Shown piece by piece: positions 9,221-64,000 of a stretch of 64,000 bases of DNA. Source of the DNA: Candidatus Woesebacteria bacterium (GTDB lineage: Bacteria; Patescibacteriota; Microgenomatia; UBA8517); contig CP055308.1 in NCBI GenBank assembly GCA_013374855.1, forward strand, positions 178,277-242,276, written 5' to 3'. Below the pieces are notes generated by a model that was not told the origin of the DNA, did not search any database, and saw nothing but the letters and a program-made list of their open reading frames with translations. The position numbers and the translations under genes were made by a program. Every line of letters begins with the position of its first letter. Position 1 is the first letter of the stretch.

Positions 9221-9499
9221 CTAACCTATTGGGCAAATATGATTTGGCTCACAAGGTTGACAATCTGGCCTACACCTAGGTTTACAAGGACTACAATAAT
9301 CATTTGGTCTACACTCCGGCGAGCAACTTGGAGAACAATTTGGATAACAAAGGGGTGGCCAGCAAGTCGGTGGTTCACAATGTGCCGGATCACAATCTGG
9401 CGGAAAACAATCGGGGCCGCAACTGAAATCACGCGTTTTGGTAACCAACTTTATTTCCGGCTTATCAACAACTCCACGCTTACACACCTCTTTCATCAT
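9221..9499 (-). CDS. Cys/Pro-rich small protein (92 aa, 15 Cys in the last ~65 residues with a 4-5 residue C-x-P periodicity). Candidate RiPP precursor peptide.
   Basis: Sequence ...DFSCGPDCFPPDCDPAHCEPPTCWPPLCYPNCSPSCSPECRPNDYCSPCKPRCRPDCQPCEPNHICPIG. Overlaps the 3' end of the upstream rSAM/SPASM gene by 20 nt on the same strand. Confidence 0.5.
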   Translation of the reverse strand: MMKEVCKRGVVDKPEIKLVTKTRDFSCGPDCFPPDCDPAHCEPPTCWPPLCYPNCSPSCSPECRPNDYCSPCKPRCRPDCQPCEPNHICPIG

Positions 9500-10916
9500 T
9501 TTTCACCCCCTTTCTAAATATCTCCACAAAACGATCAATTGGAAAATACTGAACCTGACCGTCAACAAATTTCCATACTCCCTTACCCCACTCACCAGTG
9601 TAAGGATTGTAAGTACACCTGGGTTGGGGAAAATCCCATCTGGCCTCGTCTTTATCTCCCGACGTCATAGCCAACGGTCTACAATCATAACATGCATATC
9701 TATATTCACAATCTTTGCATACTAGGACATCGTCAAGAGTCTGTCTCCATATTTTTTGTGTATCTTCAGAAAAAACAATATCAGAAAGTTCTGTCTCTCT
9801 AACATTCCCCAAAACAATATTTCTAGCAAAAATACAGGGAATAACATCCCCATTGGCAGTTACTGCCAGTTTCCCCGCCAAACAGGGATTTAAATTCATA
9901 TTTCTTATAAATCCTTCCTTATCCACAGAAAAATCAGGCTCCATTCTTAACGAATATTTCACAATCGCATCAACTGACGGGAGCAAATAATTATCTCTGC
10001 CAGAACCCATAGGTCTTACCACATCTGGGGAAACACGCCCAATCCCCCAAGAAGAGACAACTCTAAGAGTCTCCTCCAGAGTCTCTTCATTTATAGACAT
10101 ACCAATAATAGCTATACGAAACGGCACACCATATTCCTGCAAAAGTTTTATCGTTTCCATTGTCTTTTTGTAACTCCCTAGACATCCCGTGACCTTGTCA
10201 TGAACCTCTGAATCCACAGAGTATAGGGATAAAGCAAAATGTAAACCCAATTCCTTGGCTTCTTTTACCTGAGGCTCGGTAATGAGTGTGCCATTAGTAA
10301 ATACTTCTACAAACTCAAAACCTCTACCAATCGCGTAATTAGCAAGATCAAGAAAACCCTTTCCTCTACTACGAAAAATCGCGGGTTCACCACCAATCAA
10401 CTGAACTCTTCGTGTTCCGCCAATATACGCTTGGTCAATCACATCCACCCATTCTTCATAACTAAGCAGGTCAGATTTTTCTAAAAACGAATTCTGTCCA
10501 AAACTACCATAACAATGAGCACACTTCAAATTACACTTGCCTGTTATCTCCAACCACAAGAAAGAAACAAAACCTGTTTCTAAATTTTCCGAATCTTCAG
10601 ACTTCTCCAAAATACTAACCTTTTTAGATTCCTCTGGTAAAATCCCTAGAGGTCTAACGTCTGAAATAAATTTTTCATCACCTCCAAACAATAAAACTTC
10701 TGCACCTTTATCGTTAAGAGAGTATACTAACCCGCGATTTGTATCATACACAGCAGCTCTGGAAGCCCCACGCACAAGATAAACTCCTTCCCTAAGTAGA
10801 AAAACTTTATCTGTCTCTCTTCTATTACTTACTGAGTGTTCTACACCCATTATAAAGTGGGCATGCCAATTATAATAATTGTGCACCAACAAGTCAACCT
10901 TAAACGCCAAAATCAC
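9480..10916 (-). CDS. Radical SAM enzyme with a C-terminal SPASM domain and an N-terminal PqqD/RRE-like region. Putative RiPP maturase. The true start may be the internal Met (MGVEHS...) at about 10850.
   Basis: CxxxCxxC (CNLKCAHCYG); Cys-rich C-terminus (CIFARN...CKDCEYRYACYDC); N-terminal YDTNRGLVYSLNDKGAEVLLF resembles PqqD-type recognition elements. Confidence 0.8.
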   Translation of the reverse strand: MILAFKVDLLVHNYYNWHAHFIMGVEHSVSNRRETDKVFLLREGVYLVRGASRAAVYDTNRGLVYSLNDKGAEVLLFGGDEKFISDVRPLGILPEESKKVSILEKSEDSENLETGFVSFLWLEITGKCNLKCAHCYGSFGQNSFLEKSDLLSYEEWVDVIDQAYIGGTRRVQLIGGEPAIFRSRGKGFLDLANYAIGRGFEFVEVFTNGTLITEPQVKEAKELGLHFALSLYSVDSEVHDKVTGCLGSYKKTMETIKLLQEYGVPFRIAIIGMSINEETLEETLRVVSSWGIGRVSPDVVRPMGSGRDNYLLPSVDAIVKYSLRMEPDFSVDKEGFIRNMNLNPCLAGKLAVTANGDVIPCIFARNIVLGNVRETELSDIVFSEDTQKIWRQTLDDVLVCKDCEYRYACYDCRPLAMTSGDKDEARWDFPQPRCTYNPYTGEWGKGVWKFVDGQVQYFPIDRFVEIFRKGVKNDERGV

Positions 10917-54782: not shown

Positions 54783-54866
54783 CGGAGGGTAGAGGATTCG
54801 AACCTCTGAGGGATTTCTCCCACAGGTTTTCAAGACCTGCGCCATAAACCACTCGGCCAACCCTCC
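54783..54866 (-). tRNA. tRNA-Ser (anticodon UGA), type II with a long variable arm.
   Basis: Acceptor GGAGGGU/ACCCUCC, anticodon stem CAGGU/ACCUG with loop CUUGAAA, variable stem GGGAG/CUCCC, T-arm AGAGGUUCGAAUCCUCU. The overlapping ORF 54697..54891 is spurious. Confidence 0.85.
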
Positions 54867-54944
54867 ATCTCTTAAAACAAACCCTTAGCAAACCAAAAAC
54901 TAAAACTTAGGAATCAAAAAGCAGGTATATATATTCTACCAAAT

Positions 54945-55340
54945 TTAGAAAGCAAACAGAAAAAACCTAAATCTTTCTGCTATCATAAGCCCAGTGAAGA
55001 AGAGCCTATCTTTGGGGTTAAAGCCAGGCGATAAATCAACAGAAAGTCGTAAGTAGTGCTTTTGCAGCTTACCTCCAATTTTTAACAGTTTCGCTACCCT
55101 CTTAAAATCATTTTTTGCAAGCAACACCTCTCGTCTAAGTTCTGTAAACTCGTGCTCCTCTGAAAAAATTTTTGTCAAGTACCCATTTTGTTGCACACTC
55201 TTTCTAAACGGGCAGGTTACATATTTCTGTTTGAACTTTGCTGGTGGCATTTTGAGTTTTGTGTGAATCCTTTGGTTGCTGTAAGGAAAGATGGTCCGGT
55301 GAATGGTCTCGATAAACCCCTGGTGTTTCAAATCTCTCAA
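54945..55340 (-). pseudogene. Chimeric ORF. Residues matching the N-terminal part of the CYTH protein (AKNDFKRVAKLLKIGGKLQKHYLRLSVDLSPGFNPK, duplicated from 60842-60949) are fused to unrelated flanking sequence; not a functional gene.
   Basis: The shared 107-bp nucleotide block B1 (55012-55118) equals B2 (60842-60949). The rest of the ORF crosses the tRNA-Ser upstream region. Confidence 0.4.
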
Positions 55341-56260
55341 ACTCCAGTCCTATATCAGTTTTGAAGTTGTCATAAGAGCTTTCTTGATAGCCATTCTCCT
55401 ATGAACTGGCTTTTGGTGAATGGCTCACTTTAACCCCTAAACTTTCCACTAGATTGATAATATTTGATTTGTATTCACTGCCTTGGTCTGTACGTGCTAC
55501 CTTAGGTATTCCAAAATTGCTGGCTACGACCATAAAAACCTCAACAATGAACTCTGTTGTATGTTTAGTTGATATACTCCAATCCACAACAATTTCCCTG
55601 GTATAAAGATCCATGTAGGTTGCCAGGTAGATAATCTTTTGACTCCAGGCAAGCCTGGTAAAATCCCATGCCCTAAATATATTTGGTTTAATTGGGCAAC
55701 TGCCTTTAATAAGACTGGGATACCCTGATGGTTACTGGCTCCAGTCTTTTTTCTTTGCCCATCTAGCTTTCCTTTTGTAAAGTGGTTTGATCCCAAAGAG
55801 ATTCATAACCCTCCTGGCTCTGTTCTTGCCACAACCAAGTTCAATCCCAATCCTCCTGTGACCATAACTTGGATTTAACTGAAGCATCTTTAGAACCTAA
55901 TCCTTGACGAGTAGCAAATCTTTTTGATTTAGTTTGTTATCTTGATTGCAGAGATTTCTTCTTGATACCTTTAAATAGGAATATGTTTAGCCTTAAAACT
56001 AATTACTTCACTGACCTCTCTTTTTTGACTTTTCCACCTCCAAGGTAAGTATCCCAATTATTTCCTTTAATTGTTGTTTCTCTCTTCTTTTGAATCTAAT
56101 ATGTTCCATCCAGCTCACCCTGTTAGTAGCTCTTCCTCTCAACCAATTATAAATTGCCTTGTCAGATACCCCATATTGTCTGGATAAAGATATAACACTT
56201 TCACCAGCCTTAACTTTGGCCAATATTTCCTCCTTAACTTCCTTTGCAATTGCATTTTTC
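55130..56260 (-). mobile_element. Degraded IS3-family insertion sequence. orfA (HTH, 56008..56223) is followed by a frame-broken rve/integrase-core orfB (fragments in ORFs 55399..55614 and 55524..55796).
   Basis: OrfA MAKVKAGESVISLSRQYGVSDKAIYNW...KQQLKE...LEVEKS (IS3/IS911 HTH plus leucine zipper); orfB DLYTREIVVDWSIS...ARTDQGSEYKS...HSPKAS (DDE/rve), interrupted by stops. Confidence 0.6.
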
Positions 56261-56566: not shown

Positions 56567-56641
56567 GAAAGAAATAATCGCAAAATTTCTAAAATCTTAT
56601 AGTATTTACAGCGCTAAGTAAAGGATGATATAATTAGTCAC

Positions 56642-56992
56642 ATGTCAAAACAGATACAAAAACCGTATTTCAAGCATTTTGTTGTCGAAATTAACTGCCA
56701 ATTTGACTCTGGTAACTCAGTAGAATGGTTAGAAGCTAGGACAATTCCTCTTATTGAGAGTTTGAGAGTTGGTATAGTAGCAAAAACGAAACATATTTTT
56801 AAGCCGCAGGGGATAACCTTGATTTATATCCTTACCAGCTCACATATGGCTGTCCATTCTTGGCCAGAAAATGATTTTCTCCACATAGACTTGATTATTT
56901 GCTCGGAGAAAATCACGTTCGATGTTTTTAAAACCTCCATTAAGAAAACTTTTCCAGGGATGAAACATAAAATAACCGAGTTGAAATACTAA
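56642..56992 (+). CDS. S-adenosylmethionine decarboxylase proenzyme-like protein (SpeH/AdoMetDC small type, pyruvoyl-dependent).
   Basis: Signature ILTSSHMAVHSWPENDFLHIDLIIC (compare LLxESH(I/L)S(I/V)HT(W/Y)PE...D.F.C) and size (116 aa). Confidence 0.65.
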   Translation: MSKQIQKPYFKHFVVEINCQFDSGNSVEWLEARTIPLIESLRVGIVAKTKHIFKPQGITLIYILTSSHMAVHSWPENDFLHIDLIICSEKITFDVFKTSIKKTFPGMKHKITELKY

Positions 56993-57031
56993 ACTGTGAA
57001 TCCGATCGAAATAGTGACATAATACTTACTT

Positions 57032-58033
57032 ATGACAGTAGAATTTGACCAACAAATCGGCAAACAGGAAGCCGCAAAACAACCTCAACGTTTTGTAGTC
57101 GACTTCTGGATGACCGGCCGTTGCGATATGGAGTGTCCTTTTTGCTACGGCGCTGATGTCCCAACTGCTTCCCGAATTGAAATTGACAATAGTGGTAAAG
57201 ATCAAAAAGTGTATTTGTATGATACGACAGAAGAGACAAGAGCAATTACAGGCAAAGGTGGTGCAAGGCCAGAAATGACTTTAACTCAGATGCAAGAAAT
57301 AGTTGCAAAACTTAAAGATATAGGTGTCACAACCTTAACCATTGCAGGAGGTGAACCATTGCTTCGTCCCGAAACCCCAAAGATTATCAAATTTGCTCAT
57401 GATGCCGGTTTGGAGGTTTATCTATCTTCAAATGGCACCTTTTTTAAGAGACATTATAATCAAGTAAAAGATTATATATCCGTTCTAGGACTACCATTGG
57501 ATGGAAGCACCCCTAATATGAATGTCTTAATGGGTCGTCGAGAATATCTCTATAAAAACATACAAGGTATTTTGTCTTATCTCGGTGCCAACCCACCACA
57601 ACATAAGGTAAAAGTGGGTACTGTAGTTTCAAGAATAAACATTGCTGATATTGAACAAATTGGCCAGTTCCTTTATCGATCTCCAGGTCAATGCCAACCA
57701 GATACTTGGAGATTGTATCAATTTGAGCCTCTTAAGAAGGGTGCTAAGAACCGAGAACTTTACGAAATTAGTGATAGTGAATTTGATGATGTGGTTTCAA
57801 GGCTACAATTAGTGTTTCCAGAAGCACAAATCAGTGCCAGATCAAATAATGATCATATGAATGCATATTTTTTTGTAACACCAGATGGAATGCTACAGAC
57901 AGTTGATATCAAGCACAGAAGTGTGGCTGACCTATTAAGTACAAGTACCGAAGATTTGAAATCTATTGTTGGGAGTTATAGAGATACACAAATTAGAGCA
58001 AGCAAAAATAGGGAATGGTTAAATAGCCAATAA
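57032..58033 (+). CDS. Viperin-like radical SAM enzyme (prokaryotic viperin, pVip-like).
   Basis: CxxxCxxC (GRCDMECPFCYG), GGEP, SSNG. Collinear similarity to viperin beyond the rSAM core: DGSTPNMNVLMGRRE (compare DSFDEEVNVLIGRG), KVGTVVSRINIADIEQ (compare KINSVINRFNVEED), DTWRLYQFEPLKKG (compare VRWKVFQCLLIEGEN). Confidence 0.7.
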   Translation: MTVEFDQQIGKQEAAKQPQRFVVDFWMTGRCDMECPFCYGADVPTASRIEIDNSGKDQKVYLYDTTEETRAITGKGGARPEMTLTQMQEIVAKLKDIGVTTLTIAGGEPLLRPETPKIIKFAHDAGLEVYLSSNGTFFKRHYNQVKDYISVLGLPLDGSTPNMNVLMGRREYLYKNIQGILSYLGANPPQHKVKVGTVVSRINIADIEQIGQFLYRSPGQCQPDTWRLYQFEPLKKGAKNRELYEISDSEFDDVVSRLQLVFPEAQISARSNNDHMNAYFFVTPDGMLQTVDIKHRSVADLLSTSTEDLKSIVGSYRDTQIRASKNREWLNSQ

Positions 58034-58063
58034 GAACCATATCCAAACTCTTACCCTCAGCTT

Positions 58064-59233
58064 ATGAATAAAAAAGATTACACAAGTCAGATAGATTTCA
58101 GTAAGGTCATGGAGAGTGGTGATAACCTAGCGTTTTATATTGAGATTACAAATAATATTATTGATTACATACGAAATAACAAGAGTGCTACCTTCCAGGA
58201 GATAACAAAATATGTTGGGGGTAGCGATAGGAGAGTAATAAGACTACTAGATCAACTTGTTGAACTAAAAATACTTCGTTTTTACCGCAAAAGATTCTTT
58301 CTACGAGACACTTTATCTTTCACTAACTTCAGGATTTCTGATGTCCGTTGTAATTTTTGCGATTCTAAAATAGTAAATATTGATGGAAAGCTGAAATCAG
58401 TACGGAGTTTCGTGGAGGGTGCTTTAATGAAACGCCCAACACCAACTTTCATTTTTGACCAACGCCCAGTTAACGCTGACACAATCGTGCGCAGAGTCGC
58501 TTATTTGCTATTAAAAGGTGATGCGCAAGATAAAAAAATCGCATTGATTGGAGACGACGATCTAACTTGTGTGGCCCTTGCAAAAACTGGGGTAGCCAGA
58601 GAAGTTGTTGTTTTTGATATAGACGAAAGAGTCTTAGAATCAATCGAGTCAATTTCCCAGAAATATAAATTGGGGATAAAAGTTGTTAAACAAGATTTAC
58701 TCAAAAACACACCTAAAAAATTCCATGGTTATTTTGATGTATTTATTACTGATCCAACTCCAACACTCAAACCTCTCGTGCTATTTACCAACAGGGGTCT
58801 GGAGATGCTCAAAAAAGGAAGTGGAAAAATTGGCTACATTTCTCTATATCCTTCGCACATGGAGAAAACAATTGACTTCCAAAAAGTGTTAGGGGAAATG
58901 AATGTGCTTATTACTGATCTTATACCAGCTTTTAATCAATATGATTTTTTAGAATTTACTTACACCCCATCCGACTTGAAACTACTTAAAAAGTATGCAG
59001 CAAATGAAGCAAAAATATCATTTTTTGAACACCTGATGAGGATCGAAACTACAGATGCTTCTAAACCCATAAAGATGGAGATATCACGGCTGGACCTTGT
59101 GGGAAGGGCTACAAGAAGGATATTAGATGATCCTAGCAAAGATCCTGTCTTGGTTGACAAACAGAAGCACAAGTCAATTCAAAAGGCAGCGTCTACCATC
59201 CAAAAATTAATAAAGCAAAATGAAAGAAATTGA
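58064..59233 (+). CDS. DUF43-family (BpsA-like branched-chain polyamine synthase / aminopropyltransferase fold) protein with an N-terminal winged-helix-like region.
   Basis: IALIGDDDLTCVALAK...VVVFDIDERVLESI...FDVFITDPTPTLKPLVLFTNRGLEMLKKGSGKIGYISL...ITDLIPAFNQY matches DUF43/BpsA signatures (GDDDLT, DPPxT-like, NxY). Confidence 0.7.
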   Translation: MNKKDYTSQIDFSKVMESGDNLAFYIEITNNIIDYIRNNKSATFQEITKYVGGSDRRVIRLLDQLVELKILRFYRKRFFLRDTLSFTNFRISDVRCNFCDSKIVNIDGKLKSVRSFVEGALMKRPTPTFIFDQRPVNADTIVRRVAYLLLKGDAQDKKIALIGDDDLTCVALAKTGVAREVVVFDIDERVLESIESISQKYKLGIKVVKQDLLKNTPKKFHGYFDVFITDPTPTLKPLVLFTNRGLEMLKKGSGKIGYISLYPSHMEKTIDFQKVLGEMNVLITDLIPAFNQYDFLEFTYTPSDLKLLKKYAANEAKISFFEHLMRIETTDASKPIKMEISRLDLVGRATRRILDDPSKDPVLVDKQKHKSIQKAASTIQKLIKQNERN

Positions 59234-59903
59234 AAGAAATCTACCATTCGTAATTGCTAAACCTTATTCAGGACAATATCTTGAATTGCTATTGGAAACA
59301 ATATCGAAGAACGGATTACAACCTCACAGTATTTATGGAACTGATAGATGGGGAGATGTTGCAAGGCAAATTTATCAAAAAAATGTTGATAGAATCGGTC
59401 GTAAGTTTAAAGTTGGGTTGGAAGGGCATATTAGACTAGTAAATTTTCTTTTTGGTAATCGTGCTGTAGTGCTGTTCCTTGAAGGTAGCGGCAATACTAA
59501 TATGGATTTGCAAGAAGCATTATCCCTAACACAAGAGGTAAAGCGGAATTTACGAACACAAGCGCCAGGTGGAGAAAGACTAGAAGATATTATTGTATTT
59601 ATGAATCTAAAACAAGTAGATATAGGTTGTGACCCAGAAGGAATTTGCCCAACAGGAATTATTGGGATTAAAAACGACAGTGGGGAGTTTAAGGCAATCT
59701 CAAAAACATCCGGTACGTGGGATTTCTACTATTTTAAATATGTGCACGTGCCCGACAACATAGAGGATCTTCACGAAGAATTAACTACGCTAGACAAAAT
59801 GGGAGTACTTGATCCCAAAAATGAGATAGCGGTTCAAGATTTTTTGGTTATGGCGAAACTTCAAACATTGGTACCGCTGGACTTGATCAGAAAAGCTCCT
59901 TAA
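59220..59903 (+). CDS. Divergent nucleoside-diphosphate-kinase-like protein (paralog of 37499..38080), overlapping the upstream gene by 14 nt.
   Basis: FVIAKPYSGQYLELLLETISKNGL (compare NDK IKPDG...) and KYVHVPDNIEDLHEEL, closely mirroring NRVHVPDSDDHVREI of the 37.5-kb paralog. There are large insertions relative to canonical NDK. Confidence 0.4.
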   Translation: MKEIERNLPFVIAKPYSGQYLELLLETISKNGLQPHSIYGTDRWGDVARQIYQKNVDRIGRKFKVGLEGHIRLVNFLFGNRAVVLFLEGSGNTNMDLQEALSLTQEVKRNLRTQAPGGERLEDIIVFMNLKQVDIGCDPEGICPTGIIGIKNDSGEFKAISKTSGTWDFYYFKYVHVPDNIEDLHEELTTLDKMGVLDPKNEIAVQDFLVMAKLQTLVPLDLIRKAP

Positions 59904-60387
59904 TTACAATTGTTATTTCGCCAAACTCCACTTTGTCACCAGCAGATCTTCCTATAATTGCCCTAGCTAATGGTGCTTTTTCAGACAGAAGTCGGCAGCC
60001 CGCGAATTCGCCACCACCGCTTGGAGTGATTACTACTGTTTCTTCAAATGATTTTTCGTGTTCAGGGTCTTGCATCTCCCAAATCAACACACTTCCTACC
60101 CCGACTCTGTCGCAATTTTGATAACTATTTGCTAGTAGCGCATTTATCTCGTAGCTTTTTTCTCGATAATTGGCAGCTTGTTCTTGATAAATTCTTGCCT
60201 GAAGTTCAATCCTAATCATTTCATCTGGTTGCTTTGATTGCCATGGACCATCAACTTCAGCTTTAGACTTCATTGTTTCAACTGCTTTTTTTTGTGCTTC
60301 GTTTGCGCTTCTTTGAAGCTCAGAGGCAATTGCAACTAAAATAGCAGTTCTTCTATCAGTTATACCTTCCTTTTTTTCATTTGCCAT
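59887..60387 (-). CDS. GreA/GreB-family transcription elongation factor homolog.
   Basis: N-terminal coiled coil and C-terminal FKBP-like domain (VGVGSVLIWEMQDPEHEKSFEETVVITPSGGGEFAGCRLLSEKAPLARAIIGRSAGDKVEFGEITIVIKEL). Confidence 0.65.
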   Translation of the reverse strand: MANEKKEGITDRRTAILVAIASELQRSANEAQKKAVETMKSKAEVDGPWQSKQPDEMIRIELQARIYQEQAANYREKSYEINALLANSYQNCDRVGVGSVLIWEMQDPEHEKSFEETVVITPSGGGEFAGCRLLSEKAPLARAIIGRSAGDKVEFGEITIVIKELF

Positions 60388-60988
60388 ATATTAAATGTTG
60401 TTTAATGTTGTTTAGTAAATTTTTAACTAATTTTTTCTCATACAGCTTGTGGATGTGTCTATTCTCCCAATTTATGGCCCTATCATACTCTTTTTTAGAA
60501 TAAGGTTTGAGTCCTAAAGTCTCAGCCAGTATGTGTGGATCCAAATTTTCCTCTTGTGCTTCTATTTCCCATGTATAGTAGCTTTCAGTATATTTTGACA
60601 GTTTAACCTGAAAATTTTGATAACCATATTCCCAACTTTCCCAGAAATAAATCATGCCCTTGTCAAATCCTAAAATTTCAAGTAGTTCGAGTGCATTCAG
60701 AAATTGTCCCTCTTTTATTTCAACCTCCACTTCCCGTCTCTTTTTGAGGTGAAATTGTCCAACCTTTAGACTAATTTTTTCGTCATTCCCTGATTTTTTT
60801 AATCTCAAATCGAATTCGGAACCATTTTCCCAGTTTCTGGTTTTGGGATTAAAGCCAGGCGATAAATCAACAGAAAGTCGTAAGTAGTGCTTTTGCAGCT
60901 TACCTCCAATTTTTAACAGTTTCGCTACCCTCTTAAAATCATTTTTTGCGAGTTTTCCCCTTATTTCTACTTCTAGGTTTTTAGTCAT
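60377..60988 (-). CDS. CYTH-domain (triphosphate tunnel metalloenzyme / class IV adenylyl-cyclase-like) protein.
   Basis: N-terminal NLEVEIRGKL (ExExK) and alternating charged beta-strands (EVEVEIKEG ... YTWEIEAQE). Confidence 0.6.
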   Translation of the reverse strand: MTKNLEVEIRGKLAKNDFKRVAKLLKIGGKLQKHYLRLSVDLSPGFNPKTRNWENGSEFDLRLKKSGNDEKISLKVGQFHLKKRREVEVEIKEGQFLNALELLEILGFDKGMIYFWESWEYGYQNFQVKLSKYTESYYTWEIEAQEENLDPHILAETLGLKPYSKKEYDRAINWENRHIHKLYEKKLVKNLLNNIKQHLIYGK

Positions 60989-61733: not shown

Positions 61734-61798
61734 ATAGTTTCCTTTTTCGATTGCAATAATCGTCCAAGATCCTAATTTTGAAAATTAACGGTGGGGGT

Positions 61799-61872
61799 GG
61801 GATTCGAACCTCTGAGGGATTTCTCCCACAGGTTTTCAAGACCTGCGCCATAAACCACTCGGCCAACCCTCC
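61799..61872 (-). pseudogene. Truncated copy of tRNA-Ser(UGA): the 5' part through the T-loop is identical to 54794-54866, but the 3' T-stem/acceptor strand is replaced and cannot pair.
   Basis: Block A2 (61799-62013) is about 99% identical to A1 (54794-55007). Downstream of the T-loop it reads CCCACCCCCACCG instead of CCUCUACCCUCCG. Confidence 0.7.
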
Positions 61873-61972
61873 ATCTCTTAAAACAAACCCTTAGCAAACC
61901 AAAAACTAAAACTTAAGAATCAAAAAGCAGGTATATATATTCTATCAAATTTAGAAAGCAAACAGAAAAAAC

Positions 61973-62476
61973 CTAAATCTTTCTGCTATCATAAGCCCAG
62001 TGAAGAAGAGCCTGCCTTTGTTTCTTCCTGCAATTTAAATCACCAGGTTGACAATGTTTCCTAATCTGAGCAATATGTCTTTTCATTGCCTTCCACCTCT
62101 TAATCTGCCTTTTGTCGTCTGGATGCCTTCTGCCCATATAATAGCGACAGTACCACTGAAACCATCCTCTTGGATCATCTGGATGAATCCAACCTTTTTT
62201 CCGCCAAACAGACAATGGCTGGCTTGCATTAACTCCAAAAAAATTAAGATTAGGATCGTGTTTTTCAGAACATAATTTTGCCTTCAAAAACCAATCCTTA
62301 GGAAATTCATCTTGGCAATCAGTCATATATTTTCCACCAAAAACGCCAAGTTCCAACATTTCCTTGGGTGTCAGCTCAGGCTTGAACTCTGGATCAAAAT
62401 TATGTCCAGGTTTTTCAGTAAGATAATAAACATAATTCTTTTGCATTTTGTCATTTACTACAACTTTTTTTCTCAT
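61973..62476 (-). CDS. Hypothetical conserved basic/Trp-rich protein (167 aa).
   Basis: ORF only. The C-terminal 13 codons lie in the duplicated block A2. Confidence 0.4.
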   Translation of the reverse strand: MRKKVVVNDKMQKNYVYYLTEKPGHNFDPEFKPELTPKEMLELGVFGGKYMTDCQDEFPKDWFLKAKLCSEKHDPNLNFFGVNASQPLSVWRKKGWIHPDDPRGWFQWYCRYYMGRRHPDDKRQIKRWKAMKRHIAQIRKHCQPGDLNCRKKQRQALLHWAYDSRKI

Positions 62477-62565
62477 AATCTTATATTATTAGCGCAATTT
62501 TTCTTGCAAAAATTCATAAATGATAATAACCAAGCTAGTCAAAGAAGAAAAACGAAGACCTTAAG

Positions 62566-62651
62566 CGGTGGGTGTGGGATTCGAACCCACGGTAGCCTTA
62601 CGGCTACACACGCTCTCCAAGCGTGCGCACTAGTCCACTATGCGAACCCAC
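62566..62651 (-). tRNA. tRNA-Ser (anticodon GGA), type II.
   Basis: Acceptor GGUGGGU/ACCCACC, 3-bp D-stem, anticodon stem CACGC/GCGUG with loop UUGGAGA, variable arm GUAGCC-GUAA-GGCUAC, T-arm GUGGGUUCGAAUCCCAC. Confidence 0.8.
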
Positions 62652-62663
62652 CAAACAAACAAA

Positions 62664-63122
62664 TTAAGATGTCTTTTTGGCTTTCCTTTTTTCTAACCAA
62701 TTCTCAAGCTGTTTCTTGGCTTTCTTAAAAACTTCTTTTTCCCTAGCTAACCCCAACTTTCTTAAACCCGAAGAGAAATCAACCCAGGCAAATTCCTCAA
62801 ACCCCAGGACCTCTCCAGCTGATTTTTCAATAACAAGATAATAGACAATCCTCCTTGGTGATTTTTTACCATTATAATCCACTTCGTCTTCAATTCTATC
62901 GACCTCGTCTATAATCTTGCAATTCATACCCCCCTGTTCTCCCATTACCCTCAAAACTGTTCTAACTGAAGACTCACCTTTCCTAACTAAGGATTTAGGC
63001 AATTCCCACCTTTTGTTCTGAGGATCCTTTATCAAAAACCAAGAAACCCTGCCGTTTTTGGCTTTCCTAAAAACGACAGATCCAGCAACAAGTATTAAGT
63101 TATGGCTATTTAGATTAAACAT
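62664..63122 (-). CDS. NUDIX-fold protein with a degenerate Nudix box. The start is set at the internal Met (MFNLN...), because the listed N-terminus translates the tRNA-Ser(GCU) T-arm.
   Basis: ...WFLIKDPQNKRWELPKSLVRKGESSVRTVLRVMGEQGG... follows the Nudix pattern loosely (G.E....R.V.GE.GG). Confidence 0.4.
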   Translation of the reverse strand: MFNLNSHNLILVAGSVVFRKAKNGRVSWFLIKDPQNKRWELPKSLVRKGESSVRTVLRVMGEQGGMNCKIIDEVDRIEDEVDYNGKKSPRRIVYYLVIEKSAGEVLGFEEFAWVDFSSGLRKLGLAREKEVFKKAKKQLENWLEKRKAKKTS

Positions 63123-63130
63123 AACAAAAG

Positions 63131-63216
63131 CGGAGGTGGTGGGATTCGAACCCACGTGACCCTATCCGGGTCGAGGTTTAGCAAACCTCTGCCATCGACC
63201 ACTAGGCGACACCTCC
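63131..63216 (-). tRNA. tRNA-Ser (anticodon GCU), type II.
   Basis: Acceptor GGAGGUG/CACCUCC, anticodon stem GAGGU/ACCUC with loop UUGCUAA, long variable arm, T-arm GUGGGUUCGAAUCCCAC. Confidence 0.8.
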
Positions 63217-63277
63217 AACAAGTTAATTATACCAAAAGCTTTCACTTTTATTAAGAAGATTTGGTATAATCTTACAA

Positions 63278-63790
63278 GTGGAAAGCCCTGTCCCAGAAAA
63301 AATAATACAAAAACCTGTACAAGAAAAGGTTCTCTTTTCTTGGAAAGCCCATATAAGGCACTTTGAAAAGAAAAGCAAAGAATTTTACATAAACGCACTG
63401 GCTATTTTTTCAGTAATTGCGCTTATTATCTTTATTGCTGAAGGCTGGGTGCCTGTGATCTTACTGATCTCGCTTGGATTTTTGTACTTTGTTATGCATT
63501 CTGTTGAGCCAGAAATTGTTGATTATCAGATAACCAATCTTGGAATAAGAATAAAAGACAAACTAATAGATTGGGGTCAAATTACAAACTTTTGGATAAC
63601 AGAAAAGGAAGGTAGTGCAAAACTAAACCTTGGAATAACAACTATTCCCGGAAAAATAGAAATTGTTATAGAGCCAAAAGACAAAGAAAAAATAAAAAAC
63701 ACCCTTCAGGAATACCTACCTGAAGTAGAAATTCCTCCATCGTCTCTTGATAAATTGGCAAATTGGTTTTCAGCCAAAATAGAAAAATAG
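63278..63790 (+). CDS. Hypothetical membrane protein (two TM helices plus a C-terminal soluble domain); GTG start as listed.
   Basis: TM helices (ALAIFSVIALIIFIAEGWVPVILLISLGFLYFV). Confidence 0.45.
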   Translation: MESPVPEKIIQKPVQEKVLFSWKAHIRHFEKKSKEFYINALAIFSVIALIIFIAEGWVPVILLISLGFLYFVMHSVEPEIVDYQITNLGIRIKDKLIDWGQITNFWITEKEGSAKLNLGITTIPGKIEIVIEPKDKEKIKNTLQEYLPEVEIPPSSLDKLANWFSAKIEK

Positions 63791-63796
63791 CTTCTT

Positions 63797-63869
63797 GCAC
63801 CCGTAGTTCAACGGACAGAACGTTTGGTTGCGGACCAAAAGGTTGGAGGTTCAATTCCTCCCGGGTGCA
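63797..63869 (+). tRNA. tRNA-Arg (anticodon GCG).
   Basis: Acceptor GCACCCG/CGGGUGC, D-arm GUAGUUCAACGGACAGAAC, anticodon stem UUUGG/CCAAA with loop UUGCGGA, T-arm GAGGUUCAAUUCCUC (same backbone as tRNA-Arg(CCG) at 54.7 kb). The ORF 63666..63872 is spurious. Confidence 0.75.
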
Positions 63870-64000
63870 CACTTTAATCTTATAAATACATATTCTGCAA
63901 AATAGCTTTGTCTACCTCTTGCAATTGGAGTTTGCCCTCAAAGAAAGTAGCACTTGCTGTCTACTTGGTGTTCAGAAGGCAGATGTTGTAAAATTTGCCT

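Follow-up and report, generated by a model that had tools for sequence, protein, structure and literature searches.

What would a radical S-adenosylmethionine (SAM) enzyme related to viperin be making when its gene lies between one for a protein resembling SAM decarboxylases and one for a relative of the aminopropyltransferase BpsA? The question is raised by a group of genes in Candidatus Woesebacteria (assembly GCA_013374855.1), which we analysed within a stretch of 64,000 nucleotides of contig CP055308.1 (positions 178,277 to 242,276, forward strand), referred to below as the window. A first-pass annotation, made from the letters alone, had described four co-directional genes at window positions 56642-59903 as an operon for a SAM decarboxylase-like protein, a viperin-like enzyme, a DUF43/BpsA-like protein and a protein resembling nucleoside diphosphate kinase (NDK), and had suggested an aminopropyl-modified nucleotide analogue as one possible product. 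Because the signs of free-nucleotide chemistry, a link to RNA polymerase and the coupling of the aminopropylation genes to a conserved core point the same way when taken together, we favour, tentatively and with its chances put a little short of even, the reading that the cluster is a pathway for a tailored nucleoside triphosphate (NTP) analogue acting on RNA polymerase, in which aminopropylation is the decoration adopted by this lineage.

Layout of the cluster

The four co-directional open reading frames (ORFs) are present in the ORF listing where they had been placed, and they do cluster, but the unit is larger than had been described: genes for a Gre-factor paralogue and a CYTH protein on the opposite strand are conserved with them. 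The unit is a six-gene cluster, g1-g4 on the plus strand and g5-g6 on the minus strand, conserved in Patescibacteria.

56642-56992, plus strand: g1, 116 residues; pyruvoyl-type decarboxylase with the SAM decarboxylase (AdoMetDC; SpeH/class 1) fold
57032-58033, plus strand: g2, 333 residues; radical SAM protein of a viperin-related family, not viperin sensu stricto
58064-59233, plus strand: g3, 389 residues; BpsA-fold, aminopropyltransferase-like protein with an N-terminal winged-helix-like domain, a CxxC pair and GDDDLT
59220-59903, plus strand: g4, 227 residues; NDK-fold protein with an insertion of about 45 residues
59887-60387, minus strand: g5, Gre-factor paralogue; coiled coil and C-terminal globular domain
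60377-60988, minus strand: g6, CYTH/triphosphate-tunnel metalloenzyme-like protein with N-terminal EVEIRGK

The genes are tightly packed, with spacers of 39 nucleotides between g1 and g2 and 30 between g2 and g3, a 14-nucleotide overlap of g3 with g4, a 17-nucleotide overlap of g4 with the convergent g5, and an overlap of 11 nucleotides between g6 and the start of g5. Homologues of the cluster proteins carry the names Shapirobacteria, Vogelbacteria, Saccharibacteria or 'Patescibacteria group'.

Gene content of related loci

About 70 related loci, anchored on either the radical SAM or the BpsA-like protein, were surveyed and annotated with custom hidden Markov models (HMMs) and Pfam spot checks. 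Counts were made on two samples, one of 16 distinct radical SAM-anchored loci and the other of 17 loci, each flanked by 3 kb or more on both sides, anchored on the clade of BpsA-like proteins that contains g3 (the g3 clade). Throughout the survey the core consists of the radical SAM, NDK-like and CYTH genes, often joined by a Gre-like gene; it recurs in at least seven gene orders, and also as fusions (radical SAM::NDK-like and P-loop kinase::NDK-like), with junctions that usually overlap or nearly abut. Co-conservation of the four genes first noticed is thus found in related genomes, across these rearrangements. The commonest accessory module is the pair of AdoMetDC and BpsA-like genes, and in the window and its nearest relatives the radical SAM gene is placed between the two members of that pair.

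Ten of the 16 radical SAM-anchored loci carry the pair and one more has a truncated version of it; four have a carbamoyltransferase instead (with GT2 in three and PfkB in one), and one has neither. Among the 17 g3-clade loci, an AdoMetDC-like gene is present in 16, an NDK-like gene in 12 and a CYTH gene in 12. A radical SAM gene of either kind is likewise found in 12 of the 17, viperin-like in eight and MoaA-like, in the same slot, in four (L060:6412-7317, L061:8433-9365, L062:8395-9330 and L076:8352-9287), and five have none. The co-occurrence of SpeH-like, radical SAM and BpsA-like genes that the first-pass annotation had put forward for a survey is real, but the pair is separable from the radical SAM gene, being replaced in four of the 16 radical SAM loci and standing alone in one subclade.

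The replacement enzymes score 117-145 bits against MoaA models (below the cut-offs) and only 44-57 bits against the viperin-like family profile, and their four loci keep the layout of AdoMetDC, BpsA-like, NDK-like, radical SAM and CYTH genes, with a methyltransferase in three. To judge from these scores, a radical SAM family that also acts on NTPs, but is not orthologous, has taken the slot in these loci. Four of the five g3-clade loci that have no radical SAM gene fall in one subclade (L033-L037), sister to the window's own group in the g3 tree; because this subclade is nested in the tree, the absence looks like secondary loss or relocation. A 178-residue neighbour conserved in this stand-alone subclade was considered as a diverged Gre-like or NDK-like protein and rejected (hhalign probability about 0.1%).

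In the literature searched we found no description of a viperin-like radical SAM enzyme paired with AdoMetDC, BpsA, CYTH, a Gre factor or aminopropyl chemistry, no relevant paper on viperin in Patescibacteria, and nothing that would contradict the earlier statement that a pairing with both a SpeH-like and an aminopropyltransferase-fold enzyme is undescribed for prokaryotic viperins (pVips). The PHROG library gave only generic radical SAM and AdoMetDC matches to the cluster proteins. One family member (L013:5256-6149) occurs without its usual partners, next to AEP-primase-like, SUKH/SMI1 immunity-type and DprA-like genes, surroundings that resemble a mobile or defence island.

The AdoMetDC/BpsA-like pair

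The sequence of g1 contains SSHMAVHSWPE and matches Pfam AdoMet_dc (PF02675) with 56.3 bits (cut-off 25; E 4.6e-15) and the AdoMetDC of Thermotoga maritima (1tlu; E 1.7e-9), which bears out its description as a small pyruvoyl-type AdoMetDC-like protein as far as fold and family go; against NCBIfam TIGR03330 it scores 60.7 bits, under the cut-off of 75.65. T. maritima S63, H68, E72 and C83 have counterparts in every cluster-linked homologue, namely in the Ser-His processing site, the second His, WPE and a Cys, and the residue ahead of the processing Ser varies (E/S/A/N/T/F). Since neofunctionalised SpeD-like decarboxylases that act on other substrates are known, the fold alone does not fix the substrate of g1, which is presumed here to be the source of decarboxylated SAM (dcSAM).

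The g3 protein matches Pfam BpsA_C (PF01861; 168 bits, E 2.5e-49) and aligns over its full length with the BpsA of Thermococcus kodakarensis (Tk-BpsA, 5xnc; E 9.5e-34), with GDDDLT conserved and G163-D164-D165-D166 invariant in the family alignment. For the roles of the BpsA residues (D225, E259, Y290 and Y316, the dcSAM-positioning GDDD and the acidic lid) we follow a 2026 review (PMC12979288). Residues D230 and Y293 of g3 are the retained equivalents of Tk-BpsA D225 and Y290, E259 has no counterpart, and Y316 corresponds to F320, a Phe invariant in all g3-clade members. The last 60 residues of g3 have a net charge of +6, and this charge is mostly positive across the clade, compared with -2 to -6 in true BpsA-like sequences; where BpsA has its acidic aminopropyl-carrier lid, the clade has a basic C-terminus in which D-x-x-G-x-A-T-x-R is conserved. 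True BpsA-like sequences from the same scan retain all four acceptor residues and the acidic tail, and in the tree the g3 clade stands apart both from BpsA proper and from an intermediate BpsA-like clade. The assignment of g3 to DUF43/BpsA thus stands for the fold and the GDDD motif but not for the acceptor site and C-terminus, nor for its position in the tree.

The partial resemblance of g3 to BpsA bears on the explanation that two independent systems lie side by side, which we regard as the main rival, doubtful but deserving of serious weight. In that case g1 and g3 would be a self-contained polyamine pathway, starting from dcSAM and aminopropyl transfer and yielding a polyamine, long or branched, that stabilises nucleic acids; g2, g4, g6 and g5 would form a separate viperin-like system, and their adjacency would reflect operon packing and mobility in tiny genomes. 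Consistent with such independence, the two genes of the pair are adjacent without a radical SAM gene in all the true-BpsA and intermediate-clade loci (L081-L112) and again in L033-L037, where the flanks extend 5-6 kb, five of the 16 radical SAM-anchored loci have the core without the pair, and g3 retains the dcSAM-binding GDDD together with the D225 and Y290 equivalents. Set against this, E259 and the acidic lid that define the BpsA mechanism are missing from g3, the cluster-linked g3 proteins form a clade of their own whose linkage to the core is apparently ancestral, with the stand-alone group as one derived subclade, and the linkage has outlasted at least seven rearrangements, with interleaved gene order and overlapping genes. 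Furthermore, the pair, the NDK-like gene and the CYTH gene all stay in place where a MoaA-like enzyme replaces the viperin-like one. Because of this specialised clade, its altered acceptor site and a linkage that persists through rearrangements, the pair is, as far as sequence and gene context can tell, functionally coupled to the core, yet modular and dispensable for it.

Among decarboxylase genes further afield, the AdoMetDC-like genes that lie beside the intermediate BpsA-like clade have E-T-H in place of E-S-H (L081-L090, L096-L100, L102, L105, L106, L110 and L111). A Thr at the pyruvoyl-forming site cannot yield a pyruvoyl group, so these homologues may have a different chemistry.

Other recurrent genes and RNA modification

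Besides the core and the pair, the loci repeatedly include genes for a class I SAM methyltransferase, a TruD-like pseudouridine synthase and a PP-loop ATPase fused to the decarboxylase, as well as Ham1 NTP pyrophosphatase, NUDIX proteins, HAD phosphatases, thymidylate-kinase-like proteins, PRK and PfkB kinases, DHH proteins and metallophosphoesterases. The TruD-like gene adjoins the pair or the radical SAM gene in about eight loci, including one stand-alone pair and one carbamoyltransferase-type locus (L037:4925-5998, L043:1173-2378, L044:3559-4812, L056:2813-3997, L060:2488-3684, L073:2695-3885 and L016:13450-14514), and raises RNA or pseudouridine nucleotides as possible substrates; the window has no such gene. 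The SAM synthetase MetK was considered as a possible maker of a SAM analogue from the radical SAM product, but the recurring ORF of about 400 residues upstream of the decarboxylase is TruD-like instead; MetK was not found, in that neither its GAGDQG nor its GHPDK motif occurs in any collected locus. One large subgroup has fusion proteins of 389-411 residues that begin with a PP-loop ATPase domain and continue with the AdoMetDC-like one (L004:3608-4843, L014:35-1246, L041, L043-L046, L049 and L067); the PP-loop part has weak tRNA_Me_trans, QueC and DUF7411 matches. These fusions were called by protein length, and since the iterated methyltransferase and PP-loop HMMs drifted to BpsA-like and AdoMetDC sequences, the counts from those models were not used. 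Enzymes of the PP-loop type usually activate a carboxylate or the carbonyl of a nucleobase by adenylation, after which an amine or sulfur attacks.

Genes of this kind might suggest an RNA-modification pathway, to which we allow a slim chance: methylation and radical SAM chemistry would help to build a hypermodified base, (pseudo)uridine or another, on tRNA or rRNA, and an aminopropyl group would stand where acp3U and m1acp3-pseudouridine have acp. The TruD-like neighbours, the frequent methyltransferase, the PP-loop ATPase of the tRNA-modifying type that many loci have as a fusion with the decarboxylase and the conserved winged-helix-like N-terminal domain of g3 all fit this proposal. The NDK-fold protein, P-loop nucleoside monophosphate (NMP) kinase, CYTH, Ham1, NUDIX and HAD partners, however, act on free nucleotides rather than on RNA, the Gre-factor partner has no place in such a pathway, and, by the ORF list and HMM annotation, the TruD-like, methyltransferase and PP-loop genes are not part of the window's own cluster.

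The radical SAM enzyme

The CxxxCxxC motif of g2 (C31/C35/C38) is conserved in the 59-sequence family alignment, and Pfam Radical_SAM matches the protein with an E value of 5e-16; g2 belongs to a long-form subgroup with about 45 residues inserted after the cluster motif. The best curated family is viperin_w_prok (NF038283; 111.4 bits, E 4e-32), the runner-up reaching 57 bits, and ten more distant g2 homologues are likewise viperin-like below the threshold of that model (72-108 bits; cut-off 180). When the profile of the 59 sequences was compared with the PDB, viperins headed the matches, 9dfu with 88.8 bits and mouse viperin with 84.7. The alignment to solved viperins covers positions 8-254 of the 287 in the profile (chain residues 30-276 of mouse viperin) and takes in the WRLYQF/RWKVFQ block, with the invariant Y279 of the g2 family opposite viperin Y302 and W226-R227 opposite W246-K247, and MoaA and the lipid synthase GDGT-MAS align only with the core of the profile. 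The first-pass claim that the likeness to viperin runs past the generic radical SAM core is borne out by this C-terminal collinearity.

NTP binding in mouse viperin involves N77, H79, K120, R194, K220, N222, R245 and K247, with roles at the phosphates and ribose. Equivalents of R194, K220, W246 and Y302 are retained in the g2 family, as is that of K247 in the form of Arg; the beta-8 loop, which binds the base (viperin C314/K319 or Asn), is not conserved there. Viperin Tyr302 has been proposed as a proton/electron donor (PMC9642334), and the roles of the beta-8 loop residues are those of the Shomar preprint.

A bootstrapped neighbour-joining tree was rooted on MoaA-like sequences and included three eukaryote-type viperins from the PDB. 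These three formed a clade in 100% of replicates, and the g2 family grouped with other uncharacterised prokaryotic viperin-like clades at 63-68% bootstrap; the family is 22% identical to viperins compared with 18% to MoaA-like proteins. Viperins are, on these sequence comparisons, the closest characterised relatives of g2, and the g2 family may be their sister, a placement that is provisional because the tree holds no characterised pVip sequences.

With so near a relative, it has to be asked whether the locus is simply an ordinary pVip with its kinase, making plain 3'-deoxy-3',4'-didehydro-NTP (ddhNTP) for anti-phage defence amid bystander genes. The PADLOC pVip models do match g2 (118.7 and 110.8 bits), viperins are well known to have kinase partners, and the segment is bracketed by repeats and insertion sequence (IS) remnants. 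We nevertheless give this account a very slim chance: g2 and all tested relatives score 72-111 bits against the 180-bit cut-off, the associated kinase has the NDK fold and is not of the CMPK2/NMP-kinase type, and the supposed bystanders are co-conserved over dozens of loci and in some cases fused to one another.

An unrelated second radical SAM ORF, at 9480-10916 on the minus strand of the window, has a weak match (40-63 bits) to the g2 family profile.

The NDK-fold protein

No match to g4 was found in the Pfam, NCBIfam, PADLOC or PHROG HMM libraries. Its AlphaFold (AF2) model, with a predicted local distance difference test score (pLDDT) of 81.6, was compared with the PDB by Foldseek, and the top 50 matches were all NDKs, with a probability of 1.0 and a target-normalised TM-score of 0.5-0.6. 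Profile comparisons reach only the N-terminal half, where the g4 profile matches NDKs in the PDB with an E value of about 0.05 and, in hhalign, human NME1 with one of 0.042. In the family alignment (22 sequences) Y52, K108, R112 and H176 are invariant and K14 and E187 nearly so; the His lies 11 residues from the Glu, the same distance as between H118 and E129 of NDK, the equivalence in the C-terminal half being drawn from the residue pattern and not from an alignment. As a divergent NDK-like protein g4 is therefore upheld by structure prediction, but the expected PF00334 or NCBIfam match is absent.

The family is rare, with 126 representatives at E <=1e-3 among 1.84 billion. Elsewhere the NDK-like domain is fused to radical SAM proteins (P0227, P0258 and P0259), P-loop kinases (P0246 and P0247) and a SAM methyltransferase (P0143), and the first of these fusions, in other organisms, supports the earlier suggestion that the NDK-like gene acts with the radical SAM gene.

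The Gre-like and CYTH proteins

The match of g5 to Pfam GreA_GreB (PF01272) is weak (E 3e-4; 21.2 bits, cut-off 26.9), and its AF2 model (pLDDT 85.6) has GreA, Gfh1 and GreB (about 160 columns) and the N-terminus of HelD as its top PDB matches. The tip of the coiled coil, DGPWQSKQPDEM, is invariant in twelve homologues that are otherwise 39-79% identical to g5. There is also a faint match to the Rnk NCBIfam model (E 0.04); Rnk is the Escherichia coli Gre-like protein named 'regulator of nucleoside diphosphate kinase', and the position of a Gre-like gene beside an NDK-fold one may be a coincidence or a clue to a direct interaction.

For g6, the match to TIGR00318 (cyaB) has an E value of 1.9e-6 and lies under the cut-off, and the family profile finds the CYTH protein PH1819 (E 7.9e-15), the triphosphate-tunnel metalloenzyme Saci_0718 (5.9e-9) and class IV adenylate cyclases (9e-5). 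Its N-terminal EVEIRGK is a motif of the ExExK type with R replacing the motif K. Orthologues of g5 and g6 adjoin the radical SAM gene in many other loci, where they have Pfam PF01272 and PF01928 matches.

A Gre-fold protein next to a possible nucleotide cyclase might suggest an alarmone-like system, in which the radical SAM, NDK-like and CYTH proteins would make a signalling nucleotide that acts on RNA polymerase with the Gre-family factor, by analogy with ppGpp and DksA, which act via the secondary channel of RNA polymerase. The Gre-fold paralogue, with its invariant tip, is co-conserved with the radical SAM gene in both module types, CYTH enzymes include nucleotide cyclases, and LysR and histidine-kinase genes lie beside some loci. 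We nonetheless consider such a system improbable: variable tailoring modules, an island-like location and recombinase or integrase neighbours fit an accessory or defence trait better, the NDK-like family is rare, and an alarmone made by a radical SAM enzyme has no known precedent.

A proposed pathway for a tailored NTP analogue

The presence of the genes, their folds and family ties, and their joint conservation, fusion and exchange between loci are observed; the catalytic steps are inferred from homology and gene context, as are the NTP involved, the aminopropyl acceptor, what the Gre-like protein does and any antiviral or antimetabolite purpose. In the pathway that we favour, g4 would supply or regenerate the NTP, preceded in some genomes by a P-loop NMP kinase, and g2 would transform the ribose of that NTP by 5'-deoxyadenosyl-radical chemistry. 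Dehydration of the viperin type, to the 3'-deoxy-3',4'-didehydro form, would be the likeliest reaction, because g2 keeps the Y302 equivalent and roughly half of the basic residues that bind phosphate. The g1 protein would make dcSAM, from which g3 would transfer an aminopropyl group onto the nucleotide or a close derivative; the acceptor is probably not the polycationic substrate of BpsA, because the acidic acceptor site and lid are lost and the C-terminus is basic. An aminopropyl-modified nucleotide is thus a possible product. Finally, g6 may process or detoxify the triphosphate of substrate or product, and g5 may link the product to RNA polymerase, either by removing an incorporated terminator, as an immunity factor, or as a co-factor in the secondary channel.

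That free nucleotides are the substrates is suggested by a radical SAM enzyme that is either viperin-like or MoaA-like, by the fusion of the NDK-like protein to radical SAM proteins and P-loop kinases, and by neighbours that handle triphosphates and other nucleotides. RNA polymerase is proposed as the product's site of action because of the Gre-fold partner, whose gene lies beside the radical SAM gene in loci with the aminopropyl pair and in those with the carbamoyltransferase. Viperin products are known to act at RNA polymerase.

Several observations weigh against this pathway. The g2 protein falls under both curated viperin cut-offs (111.4 against 180 bits for NF038283 and 27.9 against 450 bits for TIGR04278), and an exclusive group of the g2 family plus viperins appeared in only 2% of the neighbour-joining replicates, so that the first-pass likening of g2 to viperin holds in naming the nearest characterised family but not as membership of the viperin clade. 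Since several viperin phosphate and ribose contacts are changed in the g2 family (N77 to D, K120 to T and N222 to G, with H79 and R245 variable), its substrate could also differ. The tip of g5 does not have the canonical DxxE spacing of GreA, its acidic residues being present but differently arranged. The pair can evidently function without the radical SAM enzyme, because it stands alone in L033-L037 and AdoMetDC-like genes lie beside true BpsA genes, and the aminopropyl step would not be intrinsic to the core, because the core works with quite different accessory modules. Moreover, we know of no nucleophilic amine on ddhNTP that would be an obvious aminopropyl acceptor.

Compared with systems already described, the cluster would work most like those of viperin plus kinase. 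It shares with them the radical SAM core with its collinear C-terminal extension, the retained equivalents of Y302, R194, K220 and K247, the linkage, sometimes as a fusion, to a nucleotide phosphotransferase and an island-like location, but differs in the lower score, separate clade and changed substrate contacts of g2, in a kinase partner that is not CMPK2-like, and in having an obligate-looking CYTH protein, variable tailoring modules and, frequently, a Gre-like partner. One precedent for its unusual features is the fusion of a triphosphatase/cyclase domain to some eukaryotic viperins. The likeness to BpsA (N4-bis(aminopropyl)spermidine synthase, EC 2.5.1.128) extends to full-length architecture, GDDD, the D225 and Y290 equivalents and an adjacent AdoMetDC-type gene, whereas the g3 clade, apart from its altered acceptor residues and tail, occurs in mesophilic Patescibacteria and is linked to nucleotide enzymes. 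With GreA, GreB, Gfh1 and Rnk, g5 shares the predicted fold, an S..SP..GK..GD signature in the C-terminal domain and a coiled-coil tip that is the most conserved part, but the tip is unlike the GreA DxxE and g5 is an accessory paralogue tied to a nucleotide-modifying cluster. The cluster thus fails membership of the viperins by score and clade, of BpsA by acceptor residues and acidic lid, and of the NDKs by HMM.

The only precedent that we found for linking a viperin product to methionine/SAM sulfonium chemistry is the extended pathway in human cells, a metabolic side route in which ddhCTP is converted into ddhC-5'-Met (a SAM analogue), ddhC-5'Hcy and ddhC-5'MeS (PMC10913068). That route uses the host MAT2A and has no dedicated decarboxylase or aminopropyltransferase, whereas the loci described here do not contain MetK.

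A broader proposal, which we judge unlikely, is that Patescibacteria possess a modular family of tailored terminators, in which an NTP altered by the viperin-related or MoaA-like radical SAM enzyme receives an interchangeable decoration and a Gre paralogue protects or redirects the cell's own RNA polymerase. The decoration would be aminopropyl from dcSAM here, and carbamoyl/glycosyl or methyl elsewhere. If this were true, it would be the first case of a nucleotide aminopropylated from dcSAM, and the Gre paralogue would be the first of its type to confer immunity to a nucleotide antimetabolite.

If the pathway favoured above is right, viperin-type chemistry would extend beyond plain ddhNTPs, diversified by exchangeable tailoring enzymes, and the BpsA fold and dcSAM would gain a role outside polyamine synthesis. 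A dedicated Gre-family factor would be a testable answer to how producers of chain terminators keep their own RNA polymerase from harm. Such clusters would also be a source of new antiviral or antibacterial nucleotide analogues, and would give a function to several 'hypothetical' genes in the small, poorly understood genomes of Patescibacteria.

The island and its flanks

The cluster lies in a segment of about 7 kb bracketed by direct repeats of 232 nucleotides that are 96% identical, each with a complete tRNA-Ser(TGA), in DNA that is low in GC (about 37% for the window). The features outside the six genes are as follows.

54783-55121, no strand assigned: left boundary scar; copy of the tRNA-Ser(TGA) region (54783-55014) joined to a CYTH fragment (55011-55121)
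55399-56223, minus strand: IS3-type transposase remnants; rve core E 2.7e-9, HTH_21 and HTH_Tnp_1 weak
56605..56634, plus strand: promoter-like site; TTTACA-18 nucleotides-TATAAT with a TG extension, 11 of 12 matches, the best in the region
61789-62020, no strand assigned: right direct-repeat copy, with tRNA-Ser(TGA) at 61788-61873; right boundary of the segment

In the left scar a 111-nucleotide internal fragment of the CYTH gene (equal to 60842-60952) is fused to the tRNA-Ser region at a CTTTGG microhomology, and a chimeric repeat of this kind marks a junction left by illegitimate recombination or duplication and not a simple att site. The repeats, the chimeric left copy and the IS3 fragments together support rearrangement or acquisition at this locus. 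The first-pass annotation had seen the island as flanked by IS remnants and duplicated tRNA-Ser segments; the repeats are real on both sides, as are the remnants, but the latter occur on the left side only. Insertion at tRNA genes as a general habit of the cluster was considered and rejected, most related loci having no adjacent tRNA; several of them have integrase or recombinase neighbours.

The promoter-like site ends 8 nucleotides ahead of the ATG of g1, so a transcript starting from it may have little or no leader; the site is only suggestive, because the region holds no more sites of this kind than shuffled sequence would lead one to expect.

To the right of the island there is a dense cluster of tRNA genes at 61788-63870, for tRNA-Ser(TGA), Ser(GGA), Ser(GCT) and Arg(GCG). 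Among these lie a NUDIX gene (62664-63155) and a 167-residue ORF (61973-62476), which has no Pfam match and whose 3' end falls inside the 232-nucleotide repeat.

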